A DNA stretch of 64,000 nucleotides from an uncultured bacterium (GTDB lineage Bacteria > Omnitrophota > Omnitrophia > Omnitrophales > Aquincolibacteriaceae). The stretch's first letter is position 1. The number at the start of each line of letters is the position of its first letter. Shown piece after piece: positions 1 to 44,527 of the stretch. The position numbers and the translations under genes are program-made. The stretch spans positions 12,554-76,553 of the forward strand of contig CAYSSX010000003.1 of assembly GCA_964434115.1 (NCBI GenBank), given 5' to 3'. The notes under the pieces are model-generated. The model ran no database searches and was not told where the DNA came from. It worked only from the letters and a program-made list of their open reading frames with translations.

Positions 1-447
1 CACACAGGCCTGCTGGCCTTTGCCACAAGCGACGATGAGCTGGCGGGCGTTCTGGGGCATGAGATAGGGCATGCTTATGAGCGGCACCCTGCCAAGGGCA
101 TGACGCGCTCTCTGGGGGCAGAGTATATTTCCAAAATGCTTCTCAAGGGGAATAACAACCTTGCGGCCAAGGCCGCGCTTCAATTCGCAAGCGGCGGAGT
201 TTTAAATAAGTACGGCCGCGACGATGAGCGTGAAGCGGATGACATTGGTTATTACCTGATTCGCCGCACAGGGTATTCACCCGATGGCTTGCTTCGCTTT
301 ATGAAAAAGCTTCAGCTTGTCAGCAACGATACAACTCCTGTCTTTTTTCGTTCCCACCCGCCCACCGCAGAACGCGTCGCGCGCCTCGAAGCTTTGATCA
401 AGCAGCCTGCGTCTGATACCGAAATAGCGAAGCGTTACGCGTTGTAA
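1..447 (+). CDS. M48-family zinc metallopeptidase, C-terminal part (the gene begins upstream of the window)
   Basis: Frame 1 reads through from position 1 without an in-window start. The translation contains LGHEIGHAYERH, an HExxH zinc motif typical of M48/HtpX/BepA peptidases, and the ORF ends at 447. It is a paralog of the complete M48 gene at 30406..31365 (IAHEIGHISHHD). Confidence 0.7.
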   Translation, partial: HTGLLAFATSDDELAGVLGHEIGHAYERHPAKGMTRSLGAEYISKMLLKGNNNLAAKAALQFASGGVLNKYGRDDEREADDIGYYLIRRTGYSPDGLLRFMKKLQLVSNDTTPVFFRSHPPTAERVARLEALIKQPASDTEIAKRYAL

Positions 448-721
448 ACCGCTTTAACCCAGCCTTTTACCCGTTTAAAACCCCCTGTAAGTCATTTCCG
501 CACTAGCAATCCTATGCATCTACACTCTTTGTTTTCGCAATAACAATTTTGTCTCCTACAAAAATAGCTGTATTTTTAGAATCGCTTCACAGGTATGCCA
601 TATTTTACCCTTGACCTGAAATAGAGGACTTCATTGCAACCCAATTGTTTGAAGCAGTTTATGGTCAAGGTTAATGCTGGGTGGCGGGAAGTCTAAACAG
701 CGGGTATCTTTCCCCATATTT

Positions 722-737
722 TGGCACATGCGTTGCA
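722..737 (+). promoter_or_regulatory. Candidate sigma-54 (RpoN) -24/-12 promoter upstream of giant ORF 1
   Basis: The sequence TGGCAC-ATGCG-TTGCA matches the consensus TGGCAC-N5-TTGCA exactly, with GG at 723-724 and GC at 735-736 (12 nt spacing). It lies about 60-95 nt upstream of the candidate start codons at 797 and 830, at the end of an AT-rich leader of about 350 bp. Confidence 0.5.
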
Positions 738-796
738 ACGTAATAGAGACGGACGAAAAACTTTTAAAAACAATGTATTAAAAACGTCCGGAGGGT

Positions 797-3700
797 GTGC
801 TCGAAAATTTTGCGGGGAGGGCAAGGCCAATGTTTAAGACCTTTTTCGGGGGAAAAAAGACGAGAACGAAGGTCCTTGCCCTCTCCCTCATCACCACTCT
901 TTTAACTCTGGATATAAAGGAAGCTGGGGCTTTTGAGTCTTTTCTTCCGGCTCCCGGAGTTTCTTCTTTAAGCGATCAAAGTCTTCCTTCTGAAATTCTT
1001 CCGGAAATTGCTTTTCGTATTCCCGCGGCCTACGGACAAACCCTTCGCTCCTTTCAGGGAGACAAACCTTTTTTTGTCGTTCTTCTCCAGGATGCGCATG
1101 TTCATGAGGAGGCTCAGCTTCATTTGGCCGAGCTCCTTAAATTTCTTTCCGAAAATTACCGCGTCAAACTTGTCAGCGTGGAAGGTGCTGAGGGTGAGCT
1201 CGGTACGCACGCGGTGAATGCGTTTCCCGATAAAAGCGCGCTCCGTAAAGCTGCGGGGTATTTTCTGAAAAACGGGCGTCTGACAGGCGCGGAGTATGCG
1301 GCCATGATTTTGGACCCGAGCCTTCGTCTCTTCGGTGCCGAAGACCGGAAGCTCTATGAACAAAACCGGGATATTTATTTTAAAACCCAGGAATTCCGCG
1401 GGCGTGATCAATCGGTATTGAAAGAGACGAGTGACCTTCTTCAAAAACTCTCACGCTATGTGTATGCGCCGGACGTTCAGGAACTGCTCAGGAGTGAGGA
1501 GAAGGCTTTTCAGGACAGCGGACGCCTGGAAACTTATGTTTACATGCTTGCTCAGAAAGCCCGTCATCTGGAAATTTCCGAACAGGCTTACGGCTCTATT
1601 GCAAAATTCCTCCAGGCCGCTGAACTGGAAAAACGCATTCAGTTCGAAGAAGCCCGTGAGGAGCTGGCAGCATTAGAGCAGACCCTGAAAATCCGTTTCC
1701 CTGGACAGGTGTGGGATTTACCGTTGACGGAAACCAGCGATGCGGGCGGAGAATGGCGGCGCCGCGACTGGGCCAAGATCATCGCGAGAGCAGAAGAAGC
1801 GGGGCTGGGCGAACAATTTCCTCAGGCTTTGCGGATGGCGCAGTATTTTGAAGTTTCCCGCTCTTTGGGAATGAACCTGACCCAGGAAATACGCGCCTTG
1901 GCCGCGGCAGTTAAAGAAAAACTTCTGCTCACTGACACTGAGAAAAAATTCGACCAGTTTTTGCAGGCCATCCGGATTTATGAATCTTTCCTGAATCTTT
2001 CCCTGACGCAGGAAGACGCGGAATTCTTTTTTCCGCACCGGGCTCTTTTCTCTTCACAGAAAATACGCGAATTCGTGGAGCCTCTCTTGCGTGAACAGCA
2101 ATTTGAAAAAACACTTCCCGCGGACCTGGATCTGCTTGATAAGGATCTTCCCGAACTCGAAAAGTTTTATCAGGCCGCTTTGCTTCGTGACAAGGTGCTG
2201 GTGGAGCGCACGGTGAATAAAATGCAGAAAGAACGCGCTTTGTCTTCGGCGCTTGTGGCCGGAGGGTTTCATACCGCCGGCATTGAACGGCGTTTACGGG
2301 AAAAGGGAATTTCTTTTGTGACCGTGATGCCACGGATGACGAAAGTGGACGGCGAAGAAGAAAGTAAAAAACGCTATGAAGATGCGCTCAGCGAAAAGCC
2401 TTTGACCCTTGAAGATATTTTTAAAGTGACGGCAGAGAATTCAGCCCAGGCCAAAACTCAGGATACCCGGTTCCAGCTTGTGGCCTGGCTGATGAGTTCG
2501 GGGCCGGCAGTTCCGGGAGAAAAGGAATCCCGTATCCGGCCGCTTTTCTGGCTGGCGGCAGTGGAAAGTCTTCTGGGCGAGGAGCGCGTAAGCCCTGCCA
2601 TCCGTGAGCTTGAAAAACAGGCGGGAGAAGTTTCCGATGAAGGCTACCGCAGTGAGTTGAGAGACGTTCTGCGTGAGCTTGAAGGCGGAGTGCTGGAACA
2701 GCGTTCAGAAGACATGAAGGTGTATTGGCAGCGTTTGCCGGAAGGGGCTTTCCGGGCGGTGGTGAAGGCAAGCGGGAAAGACCGCCTGAAACTGGCGGCA
2801 GTTTTTGGGGTCCGCCGTTCCGTGCCTATCGTTGATCTGGGCGGGGATGAGATTCTTTCTGTTTTGAAAGTGGATGGTTATCTCGTGCCGGAAAAAGTCC
2901 GCCGGCAGTTTGATGCGAAGGATACAAGCGCCCGCCTCGCGGAAGAGCAGACGGCCGCGAGGGCTGAGCTCCGGACTCATGAACAGGACAGCTTTCGCAA
3001 AGATGTTGAAGAGAGGCAGCAGCAGTGGCTGGAAGAAACCCTTGAAAAAGTGAACCGGATTTTTGCCCAGGCCGAAGCCTATCTTGAACGCCAGGAAACG
3101 ATCGACTCTGCGAAGCTTTCACGTTTTCTCGAGCAAGGCGTGACCGCGGCCCTGCGCGAACTCGAAGACCTCAAGGATACGGAATTTCATCAGGTGGCGG
3201 ATGCCGCGCTTTCCGCCCGCTTCAAGGAGCGCTGGAATGACCTTTTGGCGCGCATTGGGGTTCGTGCTCCGGAAGCCGTCGAACAGTTGAAAAATCTCCT
3301 GCCTGCTTTACTGGATTCAGAAGCGGCCACAGCGGAGGCTGAAGATGTTTCCCTGACCGGACTTCTTTCGACGTACCGCGGTGACGGAACTTTTTTTCAG
3401 ACCCATTCACTGGAACAGATTCAGCAGGCGCTGGAAGACTTTCAAAAGCAAACGCCTTCAGCGGCCCGTGAAACCCGTGTTCCCGGGAGTGTCCGGTTTG
3501 CCGCGGGCCTCATTCTTTTTTATGTGATTCCGGGAACGGCTGCTTATTTTCTTCAAAACATGAGCCTTCCCGCGGTGATTCAGACGCTTCTTTTTATTTT
3601 CTCCATGCGCGTGGGGTATCTGGCCTTGACGCTGGCGCATGAGTGGACTCATTTGTCAGCCGCGGTACTCACCGGGGCGGGCAAGGACGCCTTGACGAGA

Positions 3701-6700
3701 ACCAATCTCACCGGGTCTCTGAAAATCCGGGAATGGGCAGCGGGAATTTTCGCGCCGCTGGTAAGGACCCCGAGGGTCATGATCCCGGCGCTTCGTTTTG
3801 GAAAGAATACTTCCCAGCATTCCCTGGTCCGTGACGCGGCCTGGATGATGAGCGGGCTGGTGGCCTTGGCCGGTATTGTTGCGCTGGTGGTCCTTACGCC
3901 GGGGCTGGAAAATATTTTATCGCGTTCTACGGTCGCGGGTGTTGCCGTCGGCTTTGCTTTGTCTTTCTTCGCGGGTTTTTGGTCCGATATTTTACGGCCT
4001 GCACCCAAAGGCGTTTATTGCTGCGGTAACTACGGGGCAGCGTATTTGGATACATCAGTTCAGCCGCCCGTTGGGGGACAGGATTTAACGTCCGTCCGCG
4101 CAAGAGTCGTGAAGACAAAACGCGGACAGCTTCCGGACGCTCTGCGCGGGGAGTATAAAGGCGAGGTGAGAAAGCGCTCTTTGCTGGAAAGACTGCGCCG
4201 TCCCTTTGGAGGCCTAGAAGCGCCCCGGACAGCCACATGGTTTGATGAACTTCTGCTTAAGATGTCGAAGGTCACGGTGATTCGCGGTGAGCAGGCCGGC
4301 GGTGAAATTGGTTACGCGGGTTCCGGTTCCGCAAGGATTGTCCGGTTACAGGGGCATTCACGTTATGGAACTTCCAGCGCGCCTGCGGTTAAAGAAACGC
4401 AGCCTCATACATGGCTTCCGGAACGCAAGACGCCGGTGTGGAGCATTGATAACGGCGTCATGCCGCGCGGTGCCCAGACAAGGCGCGTCAGTACCTTTGT
4501 CACGCACAATGGCGACTTTGATTTTTGGGAGTTATACGGCAAACAGGTTTCTTTTGATCAGGTCGCTGTTTGGCTGAAAAAAGTTTTGGGGGTTGGGCAC
4601 CCGGCCAAGGGCGATACGCCCAAACTGGCCGGCGTCATTGATTATGTTTTTGCCCAGGGGATGTGGGATGCGGCCCTGCGGTTTGCGTTTTATGAGAATG
4701 TGGCGGACACCCTCGATTTCCGCGGACTGCCACAGAGAACGTGGAAGCAGTGGGGCGCGCGTATGGACGAACTTCTTTCCCGGCTTATCCGCGAAGGCCG
4801 CGTGTCGCCTGTCCGTGAATGGTCGCACGTGCCGCAGGCGGAGCGCGATTTGATTGCGGCTGAAGCGCTCCGGATGTTCTCCGAAAGTGATGACTTCAAA
4901 AAGTCCGTTCCGGAGTCAAAGCGGGAAGGGTTTATTAAGGCGGCCGTGCAGGCCTTTCTTGAAAATGATCTCTACACAACAGCGCGTATCGTCAAAGCCC
5001 GTTCCGAAGGCTCTTTTGGCGTGATTATTACGTCCTCTCTGCAGCCGGAAAAAACGGTTTTGTTTGCGCACTCTCAGCCGCTTTTCATTGGCTATGACCC
5101 AAGCCTGAATTTAATGGCCTGGGCCTCGGAAGCCGCAGCGCTTAAAGTTGCGTTCACCGTGGATGGAACGAAACGCACGCTTCCTTACCGTTTTGACATG
5201 GACCAGGAAACAGGCGAGATTCTTGAGCTCCGGATGGATGATGGGCTTGGGAAAGAAGGGGAAACGGCCCAGTCCCTGCGTGTTTATTCGGAATTTTTGA
5301 AGCGGGAGCTGACACCGGAAGAAGTGTCCCGTTCCGGCCGTGTGATTGACACGCGTAATAATCCGCTGATTGACCCGCTTCCGGATTTTGATGAAAAGGA
5401 TCTGGTGGGTTCAGACATCAAGGAAATTCCCTACATTTTAAACAAGATCGAACAGACCTGGCAGGACCCCGAAAGCTTTAACCGGCAAAGCGCCTATGCG
5501 CTTCTTGAAATGCTGGTGGAAAAAGATATTGAGAAAAGAATCCGCGCCGGCGTGAGTTTAAAACTTTTAAACGGGCTGGCTGAGCAGATCCGCGAAACAG
5601 CCGCTCTGATCCGCGCGGATTTGATGAGCGGAAAAGTTTCAAATCAAAATCTTCCGGCTCTTGTGGAACGTGAAATCGCTGCCATTAACCAGGCCGCGCT
5701 TTTGAATCCGCCTCACGTGCCTGAATCCGGTGATTTTTTCCCGGAAGGGCAGTCCACTGTTGATGTTTTGTTGACGGGCTTTGAAGTCAGCCAGTGGTTT
5801 GGCGAACAATTTATTTCGGACCTCAGCCGTTTGTTTCCGGCCCTGACGGTGGAAGCGGTTTCATCGAATAAAGTTTTGAAGTCCTTGAAGGAGACCCGCT
5901 TCCGCGGCGGCGCCCGGGAATTCCGGATTCAGGAAAATAACCGTGTGGTGAAGGTGGATAGAAACACGGTGGTGCTTGCCGTGAGCCAGTCGGGACAGAC
6001 CTTTCCGACATTGAACGCGACCATTGCTTTGCGGGCTGTGCTGGGTGAACGGGTGTTTGCCATGACTGGCGGCCTGGATACCCTGATGGGGCGTGCCGTG
6101 GGACAGGTGTATGCCAAGGGTGCTCCCTTCAGCGGAAGAATTTTTGATAATTTGAGCGGACTCCGGCCGGCAGAACCGAGCACCGTGGCAACAGCTGCGG
6201 TCCATGCCACCTTTACCGAGATGCTGCTGTACCTCGGGACTGAAATGAAACGCATTTATGGAGAACGCAGGCCGCTTGGAATGGCGTTTGAATTAGAGGA
6301 CCTGGATATTTTGCGCAAGCTCCGGGATGAGCTGAACACGCAGGGACTGCCCGCGATTGCCGGTGCCTCTCCGCGCAGTTCCAAGGAAACAGTGGACTCT
6401 CCGGTGCGCCGCGACTTGATAAAACTTGGAAAGCGCTGGGCTCAGCATATCCTGGAACCTGCGATTGTGATTGGTTTAGCGACCTTGATTGTCGGTATTG
6501 CCAGCTATTACGGGCTTCCGTTTTTCCCGTCATCCTGGGGATGGCTGCAGGCGGTATCACCGGCAAGCCTCGTCGACTTTTTGATTTCTTTTGGAATTCC
6601 GGTACCCAGTTCTGTGGGAGCGGTGGGTAACTCCATCTTTTTTGTTCTCGCGAACGGAATTTACGCCATCATTCTTTTCCCCTGGTTTCTTTCTCTTGGT

Positions 6701-8833
6701 CTGCGTTTGATTCAGCGGCGTTTCCCTCTGCTGGCCCGCACGGGAAAAAGAACCCTTGTGATCGGGGACATTCCTTACGTGCATCAAACATTGGAAGCCT
6801 ACGTGAGTAAAATTCTTTCACTCAGTTATGGTTTTGCCTCGCTGGATGTTCATGCCGCCAACCCGCGTGATCATTATCTTCCGCGCTTTGGCCACCGTAT
6901 TGTCCGCGGACTTTTGTCTCTTTTGATGGAGCCGGATGCGCGCCTGCACAGTCATCAGGATGAAGTCGGCGCTGTGCGTATGACCAAGAGCCAGCAGGAA
7001 GGGGTCCGGAACTTTCAGGTCGGAGCCGAGGTTTTTACGCTGGGCCGGAAGATCGCGGGGAAGGATGCCCGTGAGAAGGAAGTGGCTCTTCCCGTGGCCA
7101 ATACCCCGATTCAGGTTTCAATTCCTAATTTCATCCGCAAGGTATCCACCGTGGTAACGCTGGATGACGCGGCCCGCCGGACACTTGCCAGCCAGCTGGA
7201 GAATTTCGCGGAACTGTTCCGCGGCAAGCCTTTGCATTTGGCCGCAAAGGAACTTGGAATTTCAATCGGCCTTTCGGGAAATGACCTCGTGAAATTCGAA
7301 GAAGAGTTCCTTCTTTATGGAGAGCGCCAGCACCTTCTGGAACGGATGTATGAGAAACGTCTCGGTTCGTTTGAACGGCTTGTCTCAGCGTACGTGATTT
7401 TTTGGGCGCTGGGAAGAATCGTTTCGCGCGCCTTTCGTTTCTTAAGGTTGACCTACGATATGGCGGCCAGCCAAAGCCGGACGCGTGTGGCCACAACGCG
7501 TTCCCCGGACGCGGCCGTTAATCTGAATCTTCTTTTTTCACAAATCGGAGAGCCGGAATCCGCCAGCCGTTTTAATTCGCCGGCCGTGCCCTTGCCTTTC
7601 CGGGTTGAGACCGCGGAGACGGTTCTTCAAAAAAGCCGGGAATCCGAAGTGACGGTGAGCGCTCCCGTGGCTCAAAGAAGACGTTCGAACACAGGCTTGA
7701 CCCGTGACGACCGCCGGAAGCTTTACCAGCGCGGCATTGAAATGGGGCTTGAAAAAATCGTGTTTGATCTTTTTATCGAGCTCAAAAACCTGGAAGACCA
7801 GGCCCTGGAGCCTGCGGTGGCCGCGCATCTGGACCGCAGTTACACAAGACTGCGTAAGGAAGCGGCTGAAGACCTTGAATGGTTTCAAGGCAAAATTGAC
7901 CCGACTCGTCTTGAAGAACTGAAGTATCTGATTCGCCAGGCGTTGACCAACAGCCGCGAAAGAGTGCAGAAACTTAGAAGCCTGCAGGCGCCTGCAGAAC
8001 GTGCTCCCCGTGTTCAGAACCAGCCCAGTGAAAGTTTTCTGAGACTGCGGCAGGCGCAGAGCCGTTTAAAAGATCAGGAAGAGGTCCGCCGCCAGATTGC
8101 GAAAACTTTTGTTCCTCTTAAGCAGGAACGGGCTGCTGAAAGTTCTTCCGCGCCCGGTTCTGCGCGGGCCGAGCTTCGCGAAGCGCCCCCGGAAGCCTTG
8201 AATCCAGCGGAGTTGTCGGAAGCGCTTCTTTCCAAGAGCAGTCTGGCATGGCTTTCGGAGGAACGACGTTTATTGCCCGGCCTTGCTAGGGCGGAAGCCG
8301 CGGGAATTGATCTTGAAAAGGCTTTTACTGAATTTGCCGTGACCCCGGGAGTTGTGCAGGCCTTAGGGCTTCCCGGTTCTTCCCGGGCTGGAACCCGCGG
8401 GTATTATCTTTTTGAATACCGCGCGCCTGAAGACCGTGAACTTCTTAAAAAGCTTCTGGTCCAAAAAGCGCCCGGCATTGTGGTCGCTGTTTTCGCGCCT
8501 GTTTCAGAGAGGGCTTCCCTGGTAAAGGAATTTACCGAGGCCGTGGCCCAGAACAATTTTGCTTTTCCAGAAACGGATCTTGTGACTTACCTGAACGAGA
8601 AATCTCGCGAGCTTAAAGTTCTGCGCAATGAAGTGATTCATTTCAGGCCGCTGGTCCATGTGAAGTTGAAGAAAAATTACGAGGAAGCGCTTCAGGTTGG
8701 AGCCTTGCCGCTTGCGGCCGGAGGGATTGTCATTCGTTCCGAAAGTCCTGTGCCGGGTGCCCGTGAACTCAGGGTCGCGGATGTTATTGCGGAAGTCTTG
8801 AAAGCCGCGCTCCTTGTGGAACGGTCGGCGTAA
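797..8833 (+). CDS. Giant multidomain protein 1 (2678 aa). It has an N-terminal hydrophobic anchor, the shared two-His N-module, a polytopic membrane segment containing HExxH, a GlmS-like class-II amidotransferase region, a SIS domain and a second membrane segment
   Basis: Uninterrupted ORF of 8037 nt. An alternative start is ATG 830, preceded by GGAGGG. The N-module motifs are VVLLQDAHVHEEAQ at 1088..1099 and GGFH at 2261..2272, both shared with the other two giants. LAHEWTHL (3638..3652) lies in a hydrophobic stretch. GHSRYGTSSAP..QPH and VTHNGDFDFW (4505..4513) resemble GlmS N-domain motifs. VVLAVSQSGQT (5984..6001) is the SIS signature. Confidence 0.8.
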   Translation: MLENFAGRARPMFKTFFGGKKTRTKVLALSLITTLLTLDIKEAGAFESFLPAPGVSSLSDQSLPSEILPEIAFRIPAAYGQTLRSFQGDKPFFVVLLQDAHVHEEAQLHLAELLKFLSENYRVKLVSVEGAEGELGTHAVNAFPDKSALRKAAGYFLKNGRLTGAEYAAMILDPSLRLFGAEDRKLYEQNRDIYFKTQEFRGRDQSVLKETSDLLQKLSRYVYAPDVQELLRSEEKAFQDSGRLETYVYMLAQKARHLEISEQAYGSIAKFLQAAELEKRIQFEEAREELAALEQTLKIRFPGQVWDLPLTETSDAGGEWRRRDWAKIIARAEEAGLGEQFPQALRMAQYFEVSRSLGMNLTQEIRALAAAVKEKLLLTDTEKKFDQFLQAIRIYESFLNLSLTQEDAEFFFPHRALFSSQKIREFVEPLLREQQFEKTLPADLDLLDKDLPELEKFYQAALLRDKVLVERTVNKMQKERALSSALVAGGFHTAGIERRLREKGISFVTVMPRMTKVDGEEESKKRYEDALSEKPLTLEDIFKVTAENSAQAKTQDTRFQLVAWLMSSGPAVPGEKESRIRPLFWLAAVESLLGEERVSPAIRELEKQAGEVSDEGYRSELRDVLRELEGGVLEQRSEDMKVYWQRLPEGAFRAVVKASGKDRLKLAAVFGVRRSVPIVDLGGDEILSVLKVDGYLVPEKVRRQFDAKDTSARLAEEQTAARAELRTHEQDSFRKDVEERQQQWLEETLEKVNRIFAQAEAYLERQETIDSAKLSRFLEQGVTAALRELEDLKDTEFHQVADAALSARFKERWNDLLARIGVRAPEAVEQLKNLLPALLDSEAATAEAEDVSLTGLLSTYRGDGTFFQTHSLEQIQQALEDFQKQTPSAARETRVPGSVRFAAGLILFYVIPGTAAYFLQNMSLPAVIQTLLFIFSMRVGYLALTLAHEWTHLSAAVLTGAGKDALTRTNLTGSLKIREWAAGIFAPLVRTPRVMIPALRFGKNTSQHSLVRDAAWMMSGLVALAGIVALVVLTPGLENILSRSTVAGVAVGFALSFFAGFWSDILRPAPKGVYCCGNYGAAYLDTSVQPPVGGQDLTSVRARVVKTKRGQLPDALRGEYKGEVRKRSLLERLRRPFGGLEAPRTATWFDELLLKMSKVTVIRGEQAGGEIGYAGSGSARIVRLQGHSRYGTSSAPAVKETQPHTWLPERKTPVWSIDNGVMPRGAQTRRVSTFVTHNGDFDFWELYGKQVSFDQVAVWLKKVLGVGHPAKGDTPKLAGVIDYVFAQGMWDAALRFAFYENVADTLDFRGLPQRTWKQWGARMDELLSRLIREGRVSPVREWSHVPQAERDLIAAEALRMFSESDDFKKSVPESKREGFIKAAVQAFLENDLYTTARIVKARSEGSFGVIITSSLQPEKTVLFAHSQPLFIGYDPSLNLMAWASEAAALKVAFTVDGTKRTLPYRFDMDQETGEILELRMDDGLGKEGETAQSLRVYSEFLKRELTPEEVSRSGRVIDTRNNPLIDPLPDFDEKDLVGSDIKEIPYILNKIEQTWQDPESFNRQSAYALLEMLVEKDIEKRIRAGVSLKLLNGLAEQIRETAALIRADLMSGKVSNQNLPALVEREIAAINQAALLNPPHVPESGDFFPEGQSTVDVLLTGFEVSQWFGEQFISDLSRLFPALTVEAVSSNKVLKSLKETRFRGGAREFRIQENNRVVKVDRNTVVLAVSQSGQTFPTLNATIALRAVLGERVFAMTGGLDTLMGRAVGQVYAKGAPFSGRIFDNLSGLRPAEPSTVATAAVHATFTEMLLYLGTEMKRIYGERRPLGMAFELEDLDILRKLRDELNTQGLPAIAGASPRSSKETVDSPVRRDLIKLGKRWAQHILEPAIVIGLATLIVGIASYYGLPFFPSSWGWLQAVSPASLVDFLISFGIPVPSSVGAVGNSIFFVLANGIYAIILFPWFLSLGLRLIQRRFPLLARTGKRTLVIGDIPYVHQTLEAYVSKILSLSYGFASLDVHAANPRDHYLPRFGHRIVRGLLSLLMEPDARLHSHQDEVGAVRMTKSQQEGVRNFQVGAEVFTLGRKIAGKDAREKEVALPVANTPIQVSIPNFIRKVSTVVTLDDAARRTLASQLENFAELFRGKPLHLAAKELGISIGLSGNDLVKFEEEFLLYGERQHLLERMYEKRLGSFERLVSAYVIFWALGRIVSRAFRFLRLTYDMAASQSRTRVATTRSPDAAVNLNLLFSQIGEPESASRFNSPAVPLPFRVETAETVLQKSRESEVTVSAPVAQRRRSNTGLTRDDRRKLYQRGIEMGLEKIVFDLFIELKNLEDQALEPAVAAHLDRSYTRLRKEAAEDLEWFQGKIDPTRLEELKYLIRQALTNSRERVQKLRSLQAPAERAPRVQNQPSESFLRLRQAQSRLKDQEEVRRQIAKTFVPLKQERAAESSSAPGSARAELREAPPEALNPAELSEALLSKSSLAWLSEERRLLPGLARAEAAGIDLEKAFTEFAVTPGVVQALGLPGSSRAGTRGYYLFEYRAPEDRELLKKLLVQKAPGIVVAVFAPVSERASLVKEFTEAVAQNNFAFPETDLVTYLNEKSRELKVLRNEVIHFRPLVHVKLKKNYEEALQVGALPLAAGGIVIRSESPVPGARELRVADVIAEVLKAALLVERSA
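1088..2272 (+). other. Shared N-terminal module of giant 1 (region between the two invariant His motifs)
   Basis: QDAHVHEEAQ ... VSVEGAEGEL ... GGFHTAGI align with QDAHANLEAQ / VALEGSAGELHPEY / GGFHSEG in giant 2 and QDAHANPEAQ / VAVEGARGDLHPEY / GGFHAQG in giant 3. Confidence 0.6.
3490..4000 (+). other. Polytopic membrane segment of giant 1 with an HExxH motif inside a predicted helix
   Basis: Several 18-25 residue hydrophobic runs occur here (GLILFYVIPGTAAYFL, TLLFIFSMRVGYLALTLAHEWTHLSAAVL, MSGLVALAGIVALVVL, VGFALSFFAGFW). HEWTH is at 3638..3652. Confidence 0.45.
4250..5000 (+). other. GlmS-like class-II glutamine amidotransferase-like region in giant 1, lacking the N-terminal catalytic Cys
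   Basis: VIRGEQAGGEIGYAGSG / GHSRYGTSSAPAVKETQPH / FVTHNGDFDFWELYG parallel GlmS RGYDSAGLA / GHTRWATHGEPSEVNAHPH / VVHNGIIENY. No Cys is present at the equivalent of the Ntn nucleophile position. Confidence 0.45.
5860..6290 (+). other. SIS (sugar isomerase) domain in giant 1
   Basis: NTVVLAVSQSGQTFPTLNATIALRAVLGERVFAMTGGLDTLMG matches the GlmS SIS1 signature SQSGET..T..AL. Confidence 0.55.
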
Positions 8834-9289: not shown

Positions 9290-10261
9290 ATGAGCACAGC
9301 GCTTCTTTATGATGAAATTTACCTTTCCCATGACGCGGGGGCGCATCACCCTGAACGTCCGGAACGGCTTTCCGGGACGTACTCGCATCTTCAAAAGCAG
9401 AAATGGTTTAGGTCGCTTAAACTCCTGAAGCCCTCATCCGCACAAGAGCCCTGGATCCAGACGATCCATAGCGCGGAATACATAGCCCGGGTCTCCGAAG
9501 CCTGCCGGAGGGGCTATTCGAGCATCGATACTCCGGACGTAGGAATTTGTAAGCGGTCTTTTGAAATCGCGAAGCTCGCGGCGGGGGGTGCCTTGACTCT
9601 GGCAGACGCCCTGATGAAAGGGGAAATTGAAAACGGTTTCGCTCTTTTGCGTCCGCCGGGCCACCACGCGGAGCAGGATTTTGCCATGGGGTTTTGTCTT
9701 TTTAATAATGTTGCGATCCTTGCAAGGTACTTGCAGAAAAAGCACGGCCTTGAAAAAATCCTTATTCTTGATTGGGATGTGCACCACGGCAACGGTACCC
9801 AGCACGCGTTTGAAGAAGACCCGTCTGTTTTTTATGTCAGTCTTCATCAGTACCCCTTTTATCCGGGAACGGGCGGCGAGTATGAAAGCGGGCGCGGCCG
9901 TGGAGAAGGCGCAACGCTCAACTGTCCGATGGGGCAGGGGGCGCGGGATTCGGATTATGAACACGCCTTTTGTCAGAAAATTCTTCCGGCCATAGAATTT
10001 TTTAAACCGGACGCGGTGCTTGTTTCAGCGGGGTTTGATGCGCATGAGGCGGATCCCTTGGCCTCCATCAATCTCAGCACCGAATTTTTTGGGTGGATGA
10101 CGGAACGCGTGATGGAGATTGCCGCGAAGCACAGCGGCGGCCGCCTGATTTCACTGCTGGAAGGCGGCTATCACCTTGATTATCTTCCTCTTTGTACGGC
10201 GGAACACCTCCGCGTATTGATGGGCGGGAGCGCCGTAAAAATGTCCAAGCGCAGGCCTTGA
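9290..10261 (+). CDS. Histone deacetylase-family protein (acetoin utilisation AcuC / acetylpolyamine amidohydrolase-like)
   Basis: DWDVHHGNGTQ, GFCLFNNVAI and YVSLHQYPFYPGTGG are classic arginase/deacetylase-fold HDAC motifs. The start was chosen at MSTALLYDEIYLSH (ATG 9290). Confidence 0.85.
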   Translation: MSTALLYDEIYLSHDAGAHHPERPERLSGTYSHLQKQKWFRSLKLLKPSSAQEPWIQTIHSAEYIARVSEACRRGYSSIDTPDVGICKRSFEIAKLAAGGALTLADALMKGEIENGFALLRPPGHHAEQDFAMGFCLFNNVAILARYLQKKHGLEKILILDWDVHHGNGTQHAFEEDPSVFYVSLHQYPFYPGTGGEYESGRGRGEGATLNCPMGQGARDSDYEHAFCQKILPAIEFFKPDAVLVSAGFDAHEADPLASINLSTEFFGWMTERVMEIAAKHSGGRLISLLEGGYHLDYLPLCTAEHLRVLMGGSAVKMSKRRP

Positions 10262-30405: not shown

Positions 30406-31365
30406 ATGAAAAACACGGCGGCGTTGGCCATTTTGGCCTTGTGCCTCGTTGCGGCGGGTTGCGCCCGGGTTGACCGGAAAGGCGTGATCAGCCAGGAGCT
30501 TCCCCTAACTGTGGACGATCTCGCTGAAATTCGCGCCGGTGAACTGAACCACGAAAAAGTCCTCGAAGATTTTGACCGCTACCAGAATCCAAAACTGGAA
30601 TCCTACCTGAACGAAGTGGCTAAAAATATTGCCGCAGTTTCAACGCGCCCCTCGCTTCCTTATAAAGTGATTATCCTGGAAGACGACGAGGTTAATATCT
30701 TTGGCGGGCCGGGCGGTTTCATTTACGTGACACGCGGGCTTTTGAACTTTGTGGGCTCGGAGGCCGAAATGGCCGGCCTCATCGCGCATGAGATCGGGCA
30801 CATTTCTCACCATGATTACTCCACGATTCCGCACCTTTCAAAGATGCAGCAAGTACACGGGGCCCTTCTGAAGGGGACTGAGCTGGCCCGCAACAGCGTG
30901 GGGACCTATGGCACCGCAGCCTATTACACGGTCAAATACTCTGGCAAGGTAGCGCCGTATCTGGGGCATCGTTTTGATGTGGACAGTGAAATTGTGGCGG
31001 ATGAACATGCCGTGAAATACCTGATGGACGCGGGGTATGATCCCCGCGGGCTTCAGACCTTTATGGACCGTCTGGCAAGGGTTCCGATGGACGATGTCGG
31101 GCGTTTTGTGACCTTTATGAATGTGCATCCGCCATTTCAGGACAGAAGAGAGCTGCTGGAAGAACGTTTGAAGGGTTTTAAGTTTGATGATGCCAAACTG
31201 GAATTCAAGCCCGACCGGCTGAGCGAGGTCAAACAGACGAGTTCGGACTCCGTGTCGTCCATTATTTTCACGCCTCAAAAGGGTGTTCATCATATTGCGC
31301 CCCTTGCCCTTGAAGACTTTGGCGCGGATTCGATGAAATCATTTCCGGATCATTCCGGCGCCTAA
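30406..31365 (+). CDS. M48-family zinc metallopeptidase, lipoprotein
   Basis: The lipobox is LVAAGCARV and the zinc motif is IAHEIGHISHHD. It is a paralog of the partial gene at 1..447. Confidence 0.8.
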   Translation: MKNTAALAILALCLVAAGCARVDRKGVISQELPLTVDDLAEIRAGELNHEKVLEDFDRYQNPKLESYLNEVAKNIAAVSTRPSLPYKVIILEDDEVNIFGGPGGFIYVTRGLLNFVGSEAEMAGLIAHEIGHISHHDYSTIPHLSKMQQVHGALLKGTELARNSVGTYGTAAYYTVKYSGKVAPYLGHRFDVDSEIVADEHAVKYLMDAGYDPRGLQTFMDRLARVPMDDVGRFVTFMNVHPPFQDRRELLEERLKGFKFDDAKLEFKPDRLSEVKQTSSDSVSSIIFTPQKGVHHIAPLALEDFGADSMKSFPDHSGA

Positions 31366-36734: not shown

Positions 36735-36807
36735 GAGCCCGTAGCTCAGGTGGTAGAGCACATCCCTTTTAAGGATGGTGTCGATGGTTCGAATCCATCC
36801 GGGCTCA
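36735..36807 (+). tRNA. tRNA-Lys (anticodon UUU)
   Basis: A manual cloverleaf fits: acceptor GAGCCCG/CGGGCTC, D-arm GCTC-AGGTGGTA-GAGC, anticodon stem CATCC/GGATG with loop CTTTTAA (anticodon TTT), T-arm GATGG-TTCGAAT-CCATC and discriminator A. Confidence 0.85.
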
Positions 36808-36938
36808 CAAAAGTAAAACCCAACCCAGTGAGGGTTGGGTTTTTTTTTGCCTGAAAAGTGGTGGATTCGAACAGGAGTAGCGGCGCCCAAGAAAAAGGAG
36901 CACCGCCGGTGCGACTTCCATGCGACGGTACGGGGGGC
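36789..36938 (+). repeat. Direct repeat copy 1 (about 150 bp) comprising the last 19 nt of tRNA-Lys, the terminator and about 90 bp downstream
   Basis: It is nearly identical to 36995..37144, with 2-3 mismatches at an offset of 206 bp. Confidence 0.85.
36817..36849 (+). terminator. Rho-independent terminator after tRNA-Lys
   Basis: AACCCAACCC-agtga-GGGTTGGGTT is followed by TTTTTTTTT. The element is duplicated at 37023..37055 inside repeat copy 2. Confidence 0.7.
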
Positions 36939-36994
36939 CGACCGGAGGACGAAAGTTCGAGCGAAGCCGAGAACTGTTTTGAGTCCAAAGGCGC

Positions 36995-37144
36995 TCGAAT
37001 CCATCCGGGCTCACAAAAGTAAAACCCAACCCAGTGAGGGTTGGGTTTTTTTTTGCCTGAAAAGTGGTGGATTCGAACAGGAGTAGCGGCGCCCAAGAAA
37101 AAGGAGCACCGCCGGTGCGACTTCCATGCGGCGGTAAGGGGGGA
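36995..37144 (+). repeat. Direct repeat copy 2 (duplicated tRNA-Lys 3' end and terminator, att-like)
   Basis: tcgaatccatccgggctcacaaaagtaaaacccaacccagtgagggttgggttttttttt...cttccatgcggcggtaagggggg repeats copy 1. Confidence 0.85.
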
Positions 37145-37358: not shown

Positions 37359-37387
37359 TTGACAAAGCGATTTTAATAAATTATCTT
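37359..37387 (+). promoter_or_regulatory. Candidate sigma-70 promoter in the AT-rich leader upstream of giant ORF 2
   Basis: TTGACA at 37359..37364, a 17 nt spacer and TATCTT at 37382..37387. The region 37200..37440 is markedly AT-rich compared with its flanks. Confidence 0.3.
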
Positions 37388-37460: not shown

Positions 37461-40400
37461 ATGTCGCAAACTGACTGTATGGCTATTCTAGGCGCACGAA
37501 AGTGCGCGGCGGTAACATTGTTCTTTTTCGGCTTTCAGACAGTCGCTAGCTCTGCGCCTGCTGAGACGCTTTTACCTGCCGCCTCTCAAATTCAAATCCA
37601 AGAAAAAATCCCCAACTTTACTCCTCAGGAGATTGCCGGATACCTCCGGGAAATCCCTTCCGAACTTGGCAGTTTGCGTGAAAGCTTCATTCCTGGAAAT
37701 GCTGACGCTGAAAACGGGACGGCTGAGAAACTTCCGATGCCGGTTGTTTTTCATGTTCAGGACGCACATGCAAATCTTGAGGCGCAGGCGAGAATAAAAG
37801 AAATCCTGGAATGGGTTCGGAAAATGTCGAAAGACCATGGCGTTCAAGGGCCTGTTGTCGTGGCGCTGGAGGGAAGCGCCGGGGAACTTCATCCAGAGTA
37901 CCTTGATTTATTTCCGGAATATCCGGAGGCGAATGAAGCTTTTGTCCGGGATCTCAAAGACAAAGGCGAGATCACGGGAAGCGGTCTTTTCTTGTGGGAG
38001 CAGTATAAAGAAAAAAAATCGCACCCGGAAAACGACTCGGAAAATACCGGAAACATTGTGTTTTGGGGCGCTGAAAATCCGGAGCTTTACCGGCGTAATT
38101 TGAATCAGTTTCGAAGCCTTTTGATGAAACGCAAGGAGATTGATGCGTTTCTCCAGCCTTATCAAGCCCAGCTTGCCATAGCTCAATCGCGTATTCTTAA
38201 CCCGCAGCTTCGGGATTTTTTGAAAGACAGTGATAACCCCGAGACTCTTGCCCTGGCAGTTCTGAAGCACGCCAAGCCAACACTGGGTATTGATCTTTCC
38301 GAGCGGATCGAGCAGATCCGTTTCCCTAATCTTGCGCGTTTTGCCTACCTCCGTGAGCTTGAGCCGCTCCTCGACTCAGAACTGTCCCGCATGGATTGGC
38401 AGTCGCTGAAAAAGGGGTTTGAAAAGGATGGGATTCCCGAGGAGATGATCGCGAGGTTTGAACAGCTTTTTTCTCCTTCGGATGAAACGGGTGTCTCCTT
38501 CCGGAAAACAGTTGAAGAGATTTTACAGCGTTCCAATTTTTCCGCATCCCGCTTCCGTGATTACCCTCATTTGGCACAATGGGTTTCCTACAAATTACTC
38601 AGCCAGGAAATAGAGTCTTCGGATTTTGTCGCCGAGCTGGAACGGCTCAAGCAGGCGGTGATGACGAAATTGGCCGTGCGCAAGCAGGAAAAAGATTTTC
38701 TGAGTGTGCACAGTGACTTTTCGCTTTTTCAAAAGGTGCTTCATCTCGAAGTGACGCGCAGTGAGTATGCGGAAGCGTTGAAAACTGGAGGCCGTCTTCA
38801 GGCCGGTGAATTCAGCAAGCGCTTGGGCGAACTTCTTGAGCGGGATCGTGAGTTTGAGGAGCTCGGCAAAAATGCACGCAATAACGAGGCGGCTCTTCAA
38901 GAGGTCTTTAAGAAGGCTCTTGGATTCTACGAAGGTGCAGGAAGCCGCGATCTTGAAATTTTGGAGAATGCGCTTAGCTTTTATGACAAGCAAGCCAGGG
39001 CTCAGGTCAGTTTGCAGGAAGGCGCGCTGTCAAAGCCCGGAGTTCTGGTGCTTGTGACAGGAGGTTTTCATTCCGAGGGTGTGACACGTTACCTTAAGGA
39101 TCAAGGGATTGCTCACCTCGTGGTCGTTCCGAGGATTTCAAAAATCGAAACAGAAAATCTTTATTTCAAAGTCATGCGCCGTGAGAATTCCGACATGTCC
39201 GCTTATTTTGACAAAAACCCCCTGAACAAACAGGAGTCTCTTTTCCTTCGCGGACTCGTTGAAAAAGCGGCCCCGGAACTCACTCAAAAATACGGCGTTT
39301 CGAGCGCGGAAATCCCGCAGTTATTGGAGCAAGTCATTCACCGGCATCCGGTGCTTTCTGAAAAACTGGAAACCGCTGTGTTTCCCGGTGAAGGCAAACC
39401 CTTTGTCCGGATTAGTGTCACAGATCCCGCGAAGAAAGCCGTTCGAACCTCGGCTCAAAGTGTTGGGGAAGTGGACCTTCTTACTTCGGCAGGAAAGGGC
39501 CAGGCCTCTTATGCTTATTTGGCAGAGCAGGAATTCGACCCGAGCCTTGTTACAACGGTGACAGTGACGCCGAGCTTAAGCGGTCATTCCGCCGTTGAAA
39601 AAGCGCCGCTCAAAGGCGGTCTGTTGATGCAAAACCTGGGAAGCCTTGAAGTGACCGCGGGGCCGATTGATGCGGCTAATTTAAAAATTCTTAGATCCGC
39701 CGCCGATCAAATGCGTAATTTCAGCGGGATCATGAGCGCGACCCAGGCGGGGCCGAATTCTCTTATTCTGCCCCAGGCTGGAGTGCGGTCGGAGCTTCGA
39801 ACGATTCCGCAGGGATCCGAGAAGAAAGCGGTGGCAGAAATATCGCTCGATAAGATGACGGCAAATCAGGAGGAAATTAACCGGATCGTTGAAAACCATG
39901 ACCTGATTTATGTGAAGGCGGACATCCAGGATACTTTGACCTATGCGGAGTATATGAAAAAGTTTGAACCGTATATCACGGCGATTGGGAGTGCGCTAAA
40001 AACCCTTCGGCAAAAGGAAAAGCTGGGCGGGCGTGACAATTCGCATAAAGTCTTTATCATGAAAACCTGGTCGGAAGTGGGAAGCACTCAAAAGTTTTTT
40101 GATGACATCAAATGGTTCCGGGAACCGACACCGGAAGAAGGCGACAACGATTACTTTTTTGACGTTGTTTTTCAACCCGATTTTTCCTACCGGAGCGAGA
40201 GCGGAAAGGATGTCGAGGACCAAATCCTTTTTGGGGTTCGGAACCTTGGCGTTCCGAGCGGGGATCTCGAAACAGCCCGGCAGGAGAGGACGCTTAATCT
40301 TTTGCGGAAAAATTTTGATAACCCGGATTTTATGGGTGCTGCCAGCGCGGAACAAACGAAGAATGATTTGTTTCTTTACCTGGCGGCGAAGCTCGCGCAC

Positions 40401-43400
40401 TTTAATGACTTAGCCAAGGTGTCAGAGCGTTATGGTGCGGACCTTAGCGTGGTGGCTTATGGCGCGGGGCTTGATAAACGAATCCGCAAACTTTTCACCA
40501 ACCCTTCTTTAGGTTTCGGCGGACGTCTCGCCCAGTTTTTGGAGTGGGTCAGGGAAGAGAGGCTGGAAGAAGTTCTGGCAGCTCTTGAAGCCCGTCCGGA
40601 TTTCTTTACGGAGCGTGAAAAACAGGATACCAAGCAGAAGAAACTGGAAATTATTGAAAGACGCCTTTCGGACAGTGTGTCGATGCTCCGTGAAATTGCT
40701 GAGAACCCGGACAGCGACATCACGGTGAAAGATATTCTGGATAAATTGCCGCCTATCCTGCATTTCCTTTTCGAGCTGGAAACGGTTCTCGATATCAACA
40801 AACGGAATCTGCAGGATTTTTCTGACAAGATTTCAGCGTATGTCGGTGACCTCAAGGGAAAGAAAGCGGCGCTTATTGGCGTGGGGTACCGGGAAGGGGA
40901 CACCCGGGTTACAAAATCTCCGGCCAAGCGGATTATCCGGCAGCTTGTGGCCGCGGGAGTGACCGAGTTTTACGTCTCGGATCCGCTCGCGCGGCAATCG
41001 CTTAAAGAATGGATCGAGGCCATCAGAAAAAACCCGCATGATTCGATGGGGAAAATTCTCAAAGACCGCCGTGTTCGCTTTTATGGCGTGGATGATGGAA
41101 CCCCCGATCTTGATCTTTACACAGCCTCTGCGAATTCCGACTTCGTGGTGATTCCCACAGATGCCAACTCCGATTTGAAGAATTTGGACCTCCCAAGACT
41201 TAAACAGAGTCTGGGGGATAAATTCCTTTTTGACGGAATTAACTTTTTTGGTCTCCGGGCGAACGGAGAAACAATTTATTCTTTAGAGGCCCTTCGGGGC
41301 GCGGGTATCCGCTATGTCAGCGTGGGCCGTCCGCCCTTGAATTTTTCCAGCGATTACGCACTTGTAGACAGCCGCGTTATTGGTGACGATTATGAACGCG
41401 GCGATGCTCAGCTCGCAGCAAAAGCCGTTGAAGAGTATCAGGCCTATCTCTTATCTCTGGAAACAGACGATGAGCGGAGAAAGAAACTGGAAGAGATTTT
41501 CAGAACACCGCAATTAGACCAGCGTGAAGCGAACGCTATTCCTGTCACTCAAAAGAAGGTTGCCGTGATTGGCGGCGGTTACGTGGGATTGACTACGGGG
41601 GCCAACCTGGCCGATCTCGGAAATGATGTGACCGTTCTCGATATTCCGCAGAGGAAGCGCGCGATGGACGCGTTGACCAGTGAAGCCACGGAAGTTCCTA
41701 TTCATGAGCCCGGTCTGCGCGACCTCATTATTAAAGGTAAGGAAGCCGGCAGGATACGGTTTCAAACCCTTCCCGCGGAGTATGAAAAAGGTGTGCGTGA
41801 AGCGAGCATTGTTTACCTTGCCGTGGGAACCCCTCAGCAGGACAACGGCGCTCAGGACCCCGCTTATATCAATGGTGCTATGCGTGATATCGCGGCCATT
41901 ATCAAACGCCAAGCCTCGGAAACGAGCAGAGAGGCAGCCTTTAAAACCATTGTGATCAAATCGACCGTGACTCCCCGGGTATTCGAAGACGCGGTAAAAA
42001 TTTTGGCGCAGGAGTTCGGCCTCAAGCCAGGGATTGATTACGGCTTTGTCAGTAATCCGGAGTTTTTGAGAGAAGGGCAAGCGATCAAGGACATTACCAC
42101 GGACCTTGACCGGACCGTTCTGGGGTTTTACTCGGGAATGCCGCAGGAAGCCCGCAGGCGAGTCGAAAAAGATCTTTTGGAACTCTGGTATCCGCTCATG
42201 CTGCGCACCCCTCACTCTGTTCTGCTGACCGATACGGCAACCTCTACTTTAATCAAATACGCGGCCAATGCGTTTCTCGCGGTGTCCATCACCACGGCGA
42301 ATGTGATGGCCCAGGATGCCGCGCTTGAAATTGAAGGTTCCAACTTCAAGGAAATCGCTCCGAGACTGCGCAGAGACCAGCGGGTTGGAGCGAATGCCTT
42401 CCTGAGCGAGGGATGCGGGTACGGCGGATCCTGTTTTCCTAAGGATGTCCGTGCGGTGAACTATCTTTCCGATGAACAAGCCGGCCGTTCGCTTTTGATG
42501 ATTGTTCTTGCCGATCAATTGAACCAATATTTCAAAACCGCTGAGGTTAAGCGGCTGATTGAACAGCTTCGCGGGACCAAGGCGATTGGGACGAAGGCGA
42601 TTCTTCAGGGCAAAGTCATCGCTCTTCTTGGAATGGCTTTCAAAGCTGAAACCGACGATATGAGAGAAGCGCCAAGCGCGCACGTTCTTTATGAGCTTTT
42701 GAAATTGGATGCCCAGCAAGTCAGGATCGATGACCCGATTTTCAGAACACCGGATGCCCCCCGGAAAGAAGTGATTATCAATAATTATCTGGGAGAGCTT
42801 TACAAGCATTTCAAACACGATGTGGATTTTGAGAGAGCCTTTGACGTCTATCTTAGATCCGGGGCTTTGGAAGATCAGACGGTTCAGCGTCAACTGTTCG
42901 CCAGGCTCCGCTTCAACCCGGATGTCCAAAAGCAATTGAGAGAAAGAATCAGTGTTGATTACGATGTGGATCTTGATGAAGCCGCTTTCCGGAAAAACTA
43001 TGGCATCTATTTTGATCCAAGTAATCCCAAAGATCCATGGGATGATCAAGCCGCCCATCTTGATGTCCGCCCGTTGATTTATGGATTTCAAGGTTTGTTG
43101 AAGACCAACCGCATCGACAGCTCCTCCCTTAAGGAGTTTTACTTCCGTGAGGTTTTCTTTAACCTCAAATACCAGGTCACGAACAGGGTGGTTTTTGTGA
43201 ATCAGGCCGAGGAAGCTCTTTCTTTTGAAGCTTCTGCCGGCAGCGGAAAACGTCCCGCGGATGCCGCACTTTTGATTACGGATTGGAGCGAGTACCGGAA
43301 TTTGGACTATTCAAGTTTTTCAGGACAGCTTTTGATTGATACCCGCAATACCCTTTATGCACGAGCCCCGCAGCTGACATCAAGCCTGGGAATCAACTTA

Positions 43401-44372: not shown

Positions 44373-44527
44373 GCGAGCCCTTTTGGGGTTTGTAAAATTT
44401 TTTCCAAGTCCTTTTGCAGTAAGCCTATAAAGTTACCCCCCTGGTTTGACCCAAGGCATTTCATCAGGTATCTTTCTATCAGACTTTTTAAAAGTTCCCA
44501 ACACGCGTAAAACCTTCGCGGAGAGCT

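Follow-up and report, generated by a model that had tools for sequence, protein, structure and literature searches.

This study concerns a 64-kb stretch of DNA from an uncultured bacterium of the phylum Omnitrophota (the window, by which we mean the whole 64,000 nucleotides analyzed) and, near its start, a sigma-54 (RpoN) promoter motif that precedes an 8-kb gene whose product we call giant 1. On the forward strand, the window opens with the 3' part of an M48 zinc-metallopeptidase gene (1–447), followed by an intergenic region in which conserved islands alternate with diverged stretches and which, from its composition and its alignment across five lineages, appears to be regulatory (448–829), and then by giant 1 itself (830–8833; 2,667 residues). 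An earlier note, made by a model from the letters alone, had described a partial M48 gene with the motif HEIGH, an AT-rich leader and an exact RpoN consensus ahead of giant 1, and had put forward the peptidase as a candidate for processing the giants.

The first two of these descriptions hold. Frame 1 of 1–447 is free of stops, is already running at the window edge, and encodes the C-terminal 148 residues of the peptidase up to a TAA at 445–447, with HEIGH at nucleotides 58–72 and EREAD at 226–240; the translation matches the Pfam family Peptidase_M48 (PF01435) at E = 1.2e-22 and 81 bits, against a cut-off of 20.3 bits. The intergenic region has a G+C content of 36–47%, compared with ≈52% across the window. 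Giant 1 almost certainly starts at ATG 830, because GGAGG (816–820, within the conserved Shine-Dalgarno sequence GGGGAGGG at 814–821 on the forward strand) lies nine bases upstream, because the Shine-Dalgarno sequence and the ATGTT(C/T)AAG that follows it are kept in all orthologs, and because an identical NCBI protein of 2,667 residues (P0001) exists. The mechanical open reading frame (ORF) call for giant 1 begins at GTG 797. A spacer of 350 bp between the two genes, as given earlier, fits that GTG, whereas from ATG 830 the M48 stop is 382 bp upstream.

A conserved sigma-54 promoter motif upstream of giant 1

The element reads TGGCAC-N5-TTGCA (TGGCACATGCGTTGCA, 722–737, forward strand), with the −24 GG dinucleotide at 723–724 and the −12 GC at 735–736. 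It is intergenic, runs on the same strand as giant 1, and lies 93 nt ahead of ATG 830. The exact −24/−12 consensus claimed at this position is present and is the only exact match in the window: a search of both strands for TGGCAC-N5-TTGCW returned this single site, where shuffled sequences predict 0.05 and 5 of 100 shuffles contained one, and allowing one mismatch added no further site, compared with 1.9 expected. In a scan of the window with a sigma-54 position weight matrix (PWM), the element ranked first at 16.2 bits, the maxima of 30 shuffles having a mean of 14.3 bits and a highest value of 16.1. Evidence from the window alone that the motif exceeds chance is thus suggestive but not decisive. 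No terminator was detected in 448–829, and no Rfam family was found at E ≤ 1 in 1–1200.

We compared the element with its counterparts upstream of giant 1 orthologs. Three full-length orthologs (P0002–P0004; 62, 61, and 52% identity) are carried by the contigs L001–L006, and three more loci came from a scan of species-representative genomes: L007, from an uncultured bacterium, with an ortholog of 87% identity; L008, from Candidatus Omnitrophota bacterium ZLKRG04, whose upstream region is that of L005 but for one base; and L009, from Candidatus Taenariivivens baikalensis (Omnitrophota), with a full-length ortholog of 25% identity. The loci compared thus stand at 87% (L007), 62% (L001), 61% (L002), 52% (L005), and 25% (L009) protein identity; more distant homologs of giant 1 come from organisms named Omnitrophica/Omnitrophota, Elusimicrobia, or Chlamydiota. 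The site reads TGGCACATACGTTGCA in L007, TGGCACATGGGTTGCA in L001 and in L002 (also L003 and L004), TGGCATGTGGTTTGCT in L005 (also L006 and L008), and TGGCATGTTAATTGTA in L009. A PWM scan had been proposed as a check on the motif, and it singles out the same place throughout, since the highest score in each orthologous locus (20–28 kb, both strands) as in the window is that of the orthologous element, which extends the observation to five further lineages. In the four closer loci (L007, L001, L002, and L005), the predicted leader measures 77–86 nt and runs up to the conserved Shine-Dalgarno sequence and ATG.

The alignment of the upstream regions of five lineages (the window, L007, L001, L002, and L005) shows how selectively the element is kept. 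Intergenic identity to the window falls from 70% through 57 and 55 to 42%, and only 24.5% of the shared columns are invariant, yet all nine of the bases that the consensus specifies (TGGCA and TTGC) are invariant in the five lineages (binomial P = 3e-6 against the 24.5% background). The substitutions that do occur are C to T after TGGCA, changes in the spacer, and A to T after TTGC, all of them permitted by the consensus. Such a pattern looks like the footprint expected of a sigma-54 promoter in use. No sigma-70-type promoter was found upstream of giant 1, either at 448–830 in the window or at 9500–10010 in L002. The sigma-54 reading is thereby borne out beyond the motif itself, by conservation, by the invariance of the consensus bases, and by the lack of a sigma-70 promoter upstream, and we consider it likely that 722–737 is a working sigma-54 promoter dedicated to the 2,667-residue gene at 830–8833.

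Conserved islands and the predicted leader

The same alignment reveals further conserved islands on the forward strand upstream of giant 1. The most distal, box A (ACAATTTTGTCTCCTACAAAAA, 543–564), contains the dyad TTTTGT (547–552)-N5-ACAAAA (558–563), whose arms are invariant and whose spacer is variable across the five lineages. The core TTTGT-N5-ACAAA occurs once in the window, compared with 0.10 expected, and is found in the orthologous place in L001, L002/L003, and L007, and with one mismatch in L005. Its center would lie at about −193 from a transcription start at 748, or about −181 where a 12-nt segment discussed below is missing. Because a position ≈190 bp upstream is in the usual range for the enhancers of sigma-54 activators, we infer that the dyad is a candidate enhancer, or upstream activating sequence, of such an activator.

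Two islands lie between the dyad and the promoter motif: box B (TTTACCCTTGA, 604–614; about −144 to −134), picked out by the alignment and the island list, and box C (AGGTTAATGCTGGGTGGCG, 668–686; about −80 to −62), which is conserved in four of the five lineages. The gap between box C and the promoter motif holds a 12-nt segment (TTTCCCCATATT, 706–717) that is present in the window and L007 only and is missing from L001, L002, and L005; as 12 nt corresponds to about one turn of the helix, the boxes upstream would face roughly the same way with or without it. The public gene call of P0002 (L001 10001–10140) begins ≈140 nt too far upstream and runs across box C and the sigma-54 promoter motif, the conserved Shine-Dalgarno sequence and ATG of L001 lying at ≈10125–10142 (ATG ≈10140). 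L001 is also alone in having a tandem duplication of ≈60 bp (9600–9720), placed after the M48 terminator and ahead of the regulatory region, with copies of the form ...CAGGCCAAAAGGCCTAATGCTTTTGGC(A/G)C(G/A)CTCGCGAAACCTTGAC....

Standard sigma-54 geometry, with the start 12 nt after C736, predicts a 5' leader of ≈82 nt (748–829). Just inside this predicted transcript is box D (AAAAACTTTTAAAAA, 756–770), a conserved, palindrome-like A/T element. This A/T element at the leader start (AAAAACTTTTAAAAAAGTTTT; window 756–770, L002 ≈9921–9944, L005 ≈9930–9955) forms a perfect palindrome in L002 and L005, the window copy being degenerate; a protein could bind it, or it could fold into a weak A-U hairpin. 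A second possible hairpin, pairing 750–755 with 785–790, is weak and present in three of the five lineages, and its RNAalifold covariation term is positive, that is, unfavorable. A small conserved leader ORF was considered and rejected: in the window a stop follows after 11 codons, and the indels between lineages are not multiples of three.

Promoters of the other giants

The window encodes two further giants, giant 2 (37461–44372) and giant 3 (44528–57499), and the claim that no sigma-54 promoter precedes either is correct. The PWM scan gave no sigma-54-like site upstream of them; instead, a promoter scan found sigma-70-type promoters on the forward strand, TTGACA-17-TATCTT at 37359–37387 for giant 2 and TTGACC-17-TATCTT at 44446–44474 for giant 3, the latter placed after a terminator at 44373–44393, 3' of giant 2. 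The same contrast extends to paralogous giants in four other loci (L014–L017), where no sigma-54 site was found upstream of the giant gene and where three of the four (L014–L016) have near-consensus TTGAC-17-TATACT promoters. The sigma-70-type promoters of giants 2 and 3 and of the paralogs argue that sigma-54 control, as read from these sequences, is a specific and ancient property of the giant 1 orthologous group and not of the family as a whole.

The region upstream of giant 2 (36735–37143) has a peculiarity of its own, in that the 3' end of a tRNA-Lys(TTT) gene (36735–36808), its terminator, and the downstream sequence are duplicated. The two copies of 149 nt (36789–36937 and 36995–37143) are 99% identical and 206 nt apart. 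Outside the window, family giants tend to adjoin other very large genes, of 1,643 to >9,457 residues, as seen in L014, L015, and L017.

Architecture and possible processing of giant 1

Giant 1 gave no Pfam match. From its N terminus, it comprises a signal or anchor segment, an N-domain of ≈480 residues, the motif HEWTH among membrane helices, a GlmS-like module, further membrane helices, and a C-terminal region. The N-domain (residues 60–545; window 1007–2464) is the only region common to all 74 homologs, which range from 1,500 to 4,600 residues, and it carries invariant D, H, E, and R residues together with GGFH. Its D-x-H, E, R-D, and GGFH resemble what we take to be the motifs of the Tiki/TraB/ChaN/erythromycin-esterase superfamily, and 5 of 17 members matched PF04187 (Tiki superfamily, ChaN), weakly and below the cut-off (best E = 0.0035). 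An AlphaFold model of the N-domain (pLDDT 86, pTM 0.73) has an alpha/beta core into which a long helical segment is inserted; in a Foldseek search with this model, the rows of highest probability were EreC, HopBA1, and ChaN, but at E > 0.07, and none reached E ≤ 0.001.

The HEWTH motif (residues 937–941; window 3638–3652) is invariant and lies among predicted membrane helices, and the form HEW(T/V)H is kept down to 25% identity. The one Pfam family matched by this region at E ≤ 10 was DUF3267 ("putative zincin"; E = 0.13), and this in a single ortholog. About 125 residues further on is an invariant C1065-GNYGAA (window 4022–4042), and a stand-alone homolog of 1,174 residues (L012 4246–7770), which corresponds to residues 1140–2290 of giant 1 with 35% identity (E = 9e-161), begins with MCGNFG. 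A Met-Cys start is typical of class II amidotransferases, in which the catalytic cysteine must be residue 1. Giant 1 also contains motifs collinear with those of GlmS (RGEQAGG, HSRYGTS..QPH, HNGDFD, and SQSGQT), and the NCBIfam glmS (SIS) model matches it at E = 2e-4, far below its cut-off, the GlmS-like region spanning residues 1065–1860. An hhalign comparison with a reconstructed Escherichia coli GlmS sequence gave a local match of 43 columns with a probability of 2.9%, and a profile of four orthologs found no match among PDB sequences. An active GlmS-like module would thus require a cut directly before Cys1065, and a cut at this point would argue for processing without need for the M48 gene.

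A second feature that bears on processing is the repeated peptide R[SA]ELR, which occurs 11 times in the three giants, compared with ≈0.07 expected, and is confined to them in the six-frame translation of the window. Giant 1 has RAELR/RSELR sites at residues 607, 711, and 2446, of which those at 711 and 2446 are kept in orthologs. The looser pattern R[SA]E[LVMI]R is present in 94 copies in 24 of the 74 family members (3.3 expected), its first copy usually directly after the N-domain and its copies at a median spacing of ≈370 residues. No mention of the R[SA]ELR motif in this context was found in the literature searched.

It is quite possible, if somewhat short of probable, that parts of giant 1 itself carry out its processing, namely the Tiki/ChaN/erythromycin-esterase-like N-domain, the membrane HEWTH, and/or an N-terminal-nucleophile type of self-cleavage that frees Cys1065. 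The universal N-domain with its invariant residues, the depth to which HEW(T/V)H is conserved, and the likeness of the MCGNFG start to the internal CGNYGAA all speak for this, as do the weak PF04187, Foldseek, and glmS matches and the collinear GlmS motifs. Set against them, no domain reaches a curated threshold, the Foldseek and hhalign results are as poor as stated, and an AlphaFold model of residues 1135–1860 built from a four-sequence alignment has a pLDDT of 45. The amidotransferase module may, moreover, be inactive, and none of the candidate parts is linked to the RSELR sites.

Sigma-54 machinery and probable use of the promoter

Like the classical sigma-54 promoters (glnAp2/NtrC, nifH/NifA, and pspA/PspF), the element upstream of giant 1 has a TGGCAC-N5-TTGCW core in which GG and GC stand ten bases apart, lies between genes in the orientation of its target, has a dyad 100–200 bp upstream, and lacks sigma-70 hexamers; it differs in that no IHF-like site is seen, the host is an uncultivated member of the Omnitrophota, and the target is an 8-kb gene. 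The consensus itself was reportedly compiled by Barrios et al. 1999. NtrC binds TGCACC-N5-GGTGCA and NifA binds TGT-N10-ACA, and the dyad TTTTGT-N5-ACAAAA is unlike both. A parallel closer in phylogeny is Chlamydia, also of the PVC group, where sigma-54 works with the activator CtcC on a small set of targets that includes membrane and envelope proteins; CtcC is not known to have a DNA-binding domain, whereas the conserved distal dyad here suggests an activator that binds DNA, and a single promoter does not define a regulon.

By analogy with these systems, sigma-54 RNA polymerase would bind the −24 GG and the −12 GC and be held there as a closed complex. Some AAA+ enhancer-binding protein, with its gene at another place in the genome, would probably bind the dyad ≈190 bp upstream and loop to the promoter, where its ATP hydrolysis would open the complex. 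Transcription would then begin near 748 and yield the ≈82-nt leader with its strong ribosome-binding site. Expression of the giant 1 orthologous group would thus depend on a signal, while the other giants of the family are served by housekeeping-type promoters.

As to the machinery, we take the KEGG orthology (KO) entry K03092 to be rpoN and K02481, K07713, and K07714 to be NtrC-family activators. Sigma-54 machinery is present in the phylum Omnitrophota, evidence that applies at the level of the phylum, because the KO lists of two of its genomes hold rpoN and NtrC-family entries: in the published material with readable KO lists, K03092, K02481, and K07713 appear in both genomes and K07714 in one (Seymour et al. 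2023, PMC10066038).

Several points weigh against a working sigma-54 promoter at this place. The PWM was an approximate reconstruction of a published compilation, and in the window alone its score for the element is barely above that of shuffles (16.2 versus 16.1 bits). L009, the locus of the most distant ortholog, has TTGT in place of TTGC as its −12 element and an uncertain start codon, and its site is a weaker version of the one in the window. We know of no activator site that the box A dyad matches, and a check by eye found no acceptable IHF site in boxes B and C. The ORFs of the window and the fetched loci yielded no rpoN and no activator gene (Sigma54_activat), and a six-frame search of the window and all loci gave no GAFTGA, RpoN box, or activator Walker A motif; the window ORFs do include a PAS histidine kinase. 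Lastly, the M48 gene has no recognizable terminator after it in the window and L007, and transcripts from upstream could therefore read through in these two.

These points can be drawn together in another explanation, in which TGGCAC-N5-TTGCA is the site of some other DNA-binding protein, or a silent sigma-54 site, and transcripts of giant 1 come from the M48 unit by read-through or from a promoter that escaped recognition. The missing terminators would fit it, as would the conservation of boxes B, C, and D, which implies that more than one factor acts upstream of giant 1, and the fact that the support for rpoN comes from the phylum, outside this genome. The loci themselves make it improbable. 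Conservation agrees base for base with the sigma-54 consensus while the spacer and flanks vary, and the steady distance from the element to the start codon suits a promoter. Hairpin terminators with U-runs stand 3' of the M48 gene in L002 (−29.5 kcal/mol, z = −6.0) and L001 (−24.6 kcal/mol, z = −8.4), and the element is kept in both despite them; in L005, the upstream gene is divergent, which makes read-through impossible there. The search for sigma-70 promoters in the window and L002 likewise offered no alternative start for the gene. A working sigma-54 promoter at 722–737 accounts for these observations better than its rival does.

The M48 neighbor

The earlier note had also proposed a function for the gene at 1–447. 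Full-length orthologs of this M48 protein have 252–254 residues, a FQGC lipobox, and 82–87% identity to the window fragment. Like the E. coli proteins BepA, LoiP (YggG), and YcaL, it has HExxH with a downstream E-x-E-A-D, a lipoprotein signal in its orthologs, and a length of ≈250 residues; unlike them, it has no TPR repeats, and against the NCBIfam equivalogs it scores far below the cut-offs (best BepA, 117 versus 570 bits; LoiP, 83 versus 365 bits). In L001, L002, and L007, it is the last gene of a unit with sensor kinases and single-domain receivers, joined in L001 and L002 by lipid-type enzymes. We thus regard the protein, from its sequence and setting, as a probable BepA/LoiP-like periplasmic lipoprotein protease that closes a kinase- and receiver-containing unit. 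Known enzymes of the BepA/LoiP/YcaL type act in outer-membrane protein quality control and not in polyprotein maturation. The second complete M48 lipoprotein gene that the note had reported is also real (30406–31365, forward strand; 319 residues), with a Peptidase_M48 match at E = 2.5e-24, the lipobox LVAAGC, and HEIGH, and the two M48 proteins of the window are distant paralogs (28% identity by BLASTP).

The gene order is kept over a short range only. An M48 gene lies directly upstream of giant 1 in the window, L007, L001, and L002, the four closest lineages, and the synteny put forward as a check thus holds among these, but it is lost in L005/L008 and L009. In L005/L008, the upstream neighbor is a divergent ABC transporter, and an HtpX-type M48 gene with LemA is found 2 kb downstream; in L009, no M48 gene lies within ≈8–10 kb of the giant, which nonetheless keeps RSEVR/RSELR at the orthologous positions as well as HEWVH. 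Nor is there an M48 gene within 10 kb of the four paralogous giants, although these have no RSELR-type motif, so their M48-free contexts are uninformative on co-occurrence. Co-transcription of the M48 gene with giant 1 is not what the loci suggest, the giant having its own conserved promoter motif and the M48 gene its own terminators in L001 and L002.

On this evidence, we judge it highly improbable that a co-localized M48 lipoprotein (1–447 and/or 30406–31365) cuts the giants at R(S/A)ELR and that the gene order reflects such a partnership. The striking excess of the motif, the direct adjacency in four lineages, and the HtpX-like gene in a fifth are what the proposal has in its favor, and the presence of some M48 gene within 2 kb of the giant in five of six lineages (the L005 gene being HtpX-like and downstream) counts against dismissing a functional link to the giant. 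Yet the four adjacent lineages share their entire gene order, as ordinary synteny would have it, and the M48 gene of L005 is of another subfamily. Adjacency is lost in the orthologs of 52 and 25% identity, which keep the promoter, the RSELR motif, and the internal HExxH, and nothing links M48 specificity to Arg-rich sites. Two family members, P0040 (residues 984–1031) and P0059 (residues 1958–2038), embed a partial M48-like segment around HExxH together with an ABC1 kinase-like domain, and P0059 also has nine RSE[LVM]R copies; such a fusion would favor the proposal but is of little weight given that giants of this family embed dozens of unrelated enzymes. The varied enzymes so embedded include PGM, PGI, NDK, GGDEF, a PEP-utilizing domain, and CofD. 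The M48 gene looks like a neighbor of giant 1 by lineage-specific synteny and not a demonstrated partner, and a functional link between the two is probably absent.

Discussion

The giants described here recall those already known from the phylum, which have been treated in three papers (Seymour et al. 2023, PMC10066038; West-Roberts et al. 2023, bioRxiv 10.1101/2023.11.21.568195; bioRxiv 10.64898/2026.06.07.730766). The published giants have 20,000 to >100,000 residues, and C39 or S8 peptidase domains have been proposed for them. They share with the present ones the phylum, a signal peptide with many membrane helices, embedded carbohydrate enzymes, and the question of cleavage; the present ones differ in their size (2,300–4,300 residues), in their other shared N-domain, and in the RSE[LVM]R motif. 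Promoters, sigma-54, and M48 are not mentioned in the three papers, and literature searches that combined Omnitrophota with sigma-54/RpoN or with the peptide motifs returned nothing relevant. For the transcription of very large Omnitrophota genes in general, no published description was found in the literature searched.

The promoter upstream of giant 1 would itself be of a standard type in a new place, and the M48 link does not hold up. A precedent for the pairing of regulator and target may lie in the enterobacteria. There, the GlrK/GlrR two-component system, sigma-54, and glmY control GlmS indirectly through small RNAs, so that an amino-sugar enzyme is made under the direction of sigma-54 and an activator. 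In giant 1, the likeness to GlmS does not go beyond motifs, and the parallel should be read as a lead rather than a result.

A deeply conserved sigma-54 promoter together with a candidate enhancer would mean that giant 1 is made on demand and not constitutively. The analysis also names targets to look for: an rpoN gene, an activator of the NtrC type, and transcripts that start at about 748. The parts can be joined into a single picture, in which an orthologous group of "small giants" of the envelope is switched on by a sigma-54 activator through the dyad, and the resulting polyprotein is cut at RSE[LVM]R and before Cys1065 either by its own Tiki-like or HExxH parts or by the adjacent M48 lipoprotein. 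As a whole, this picture is unlikely to be right in every part; if true, it would open a first way into the regulation of giant genes in this host-dependent phylum.

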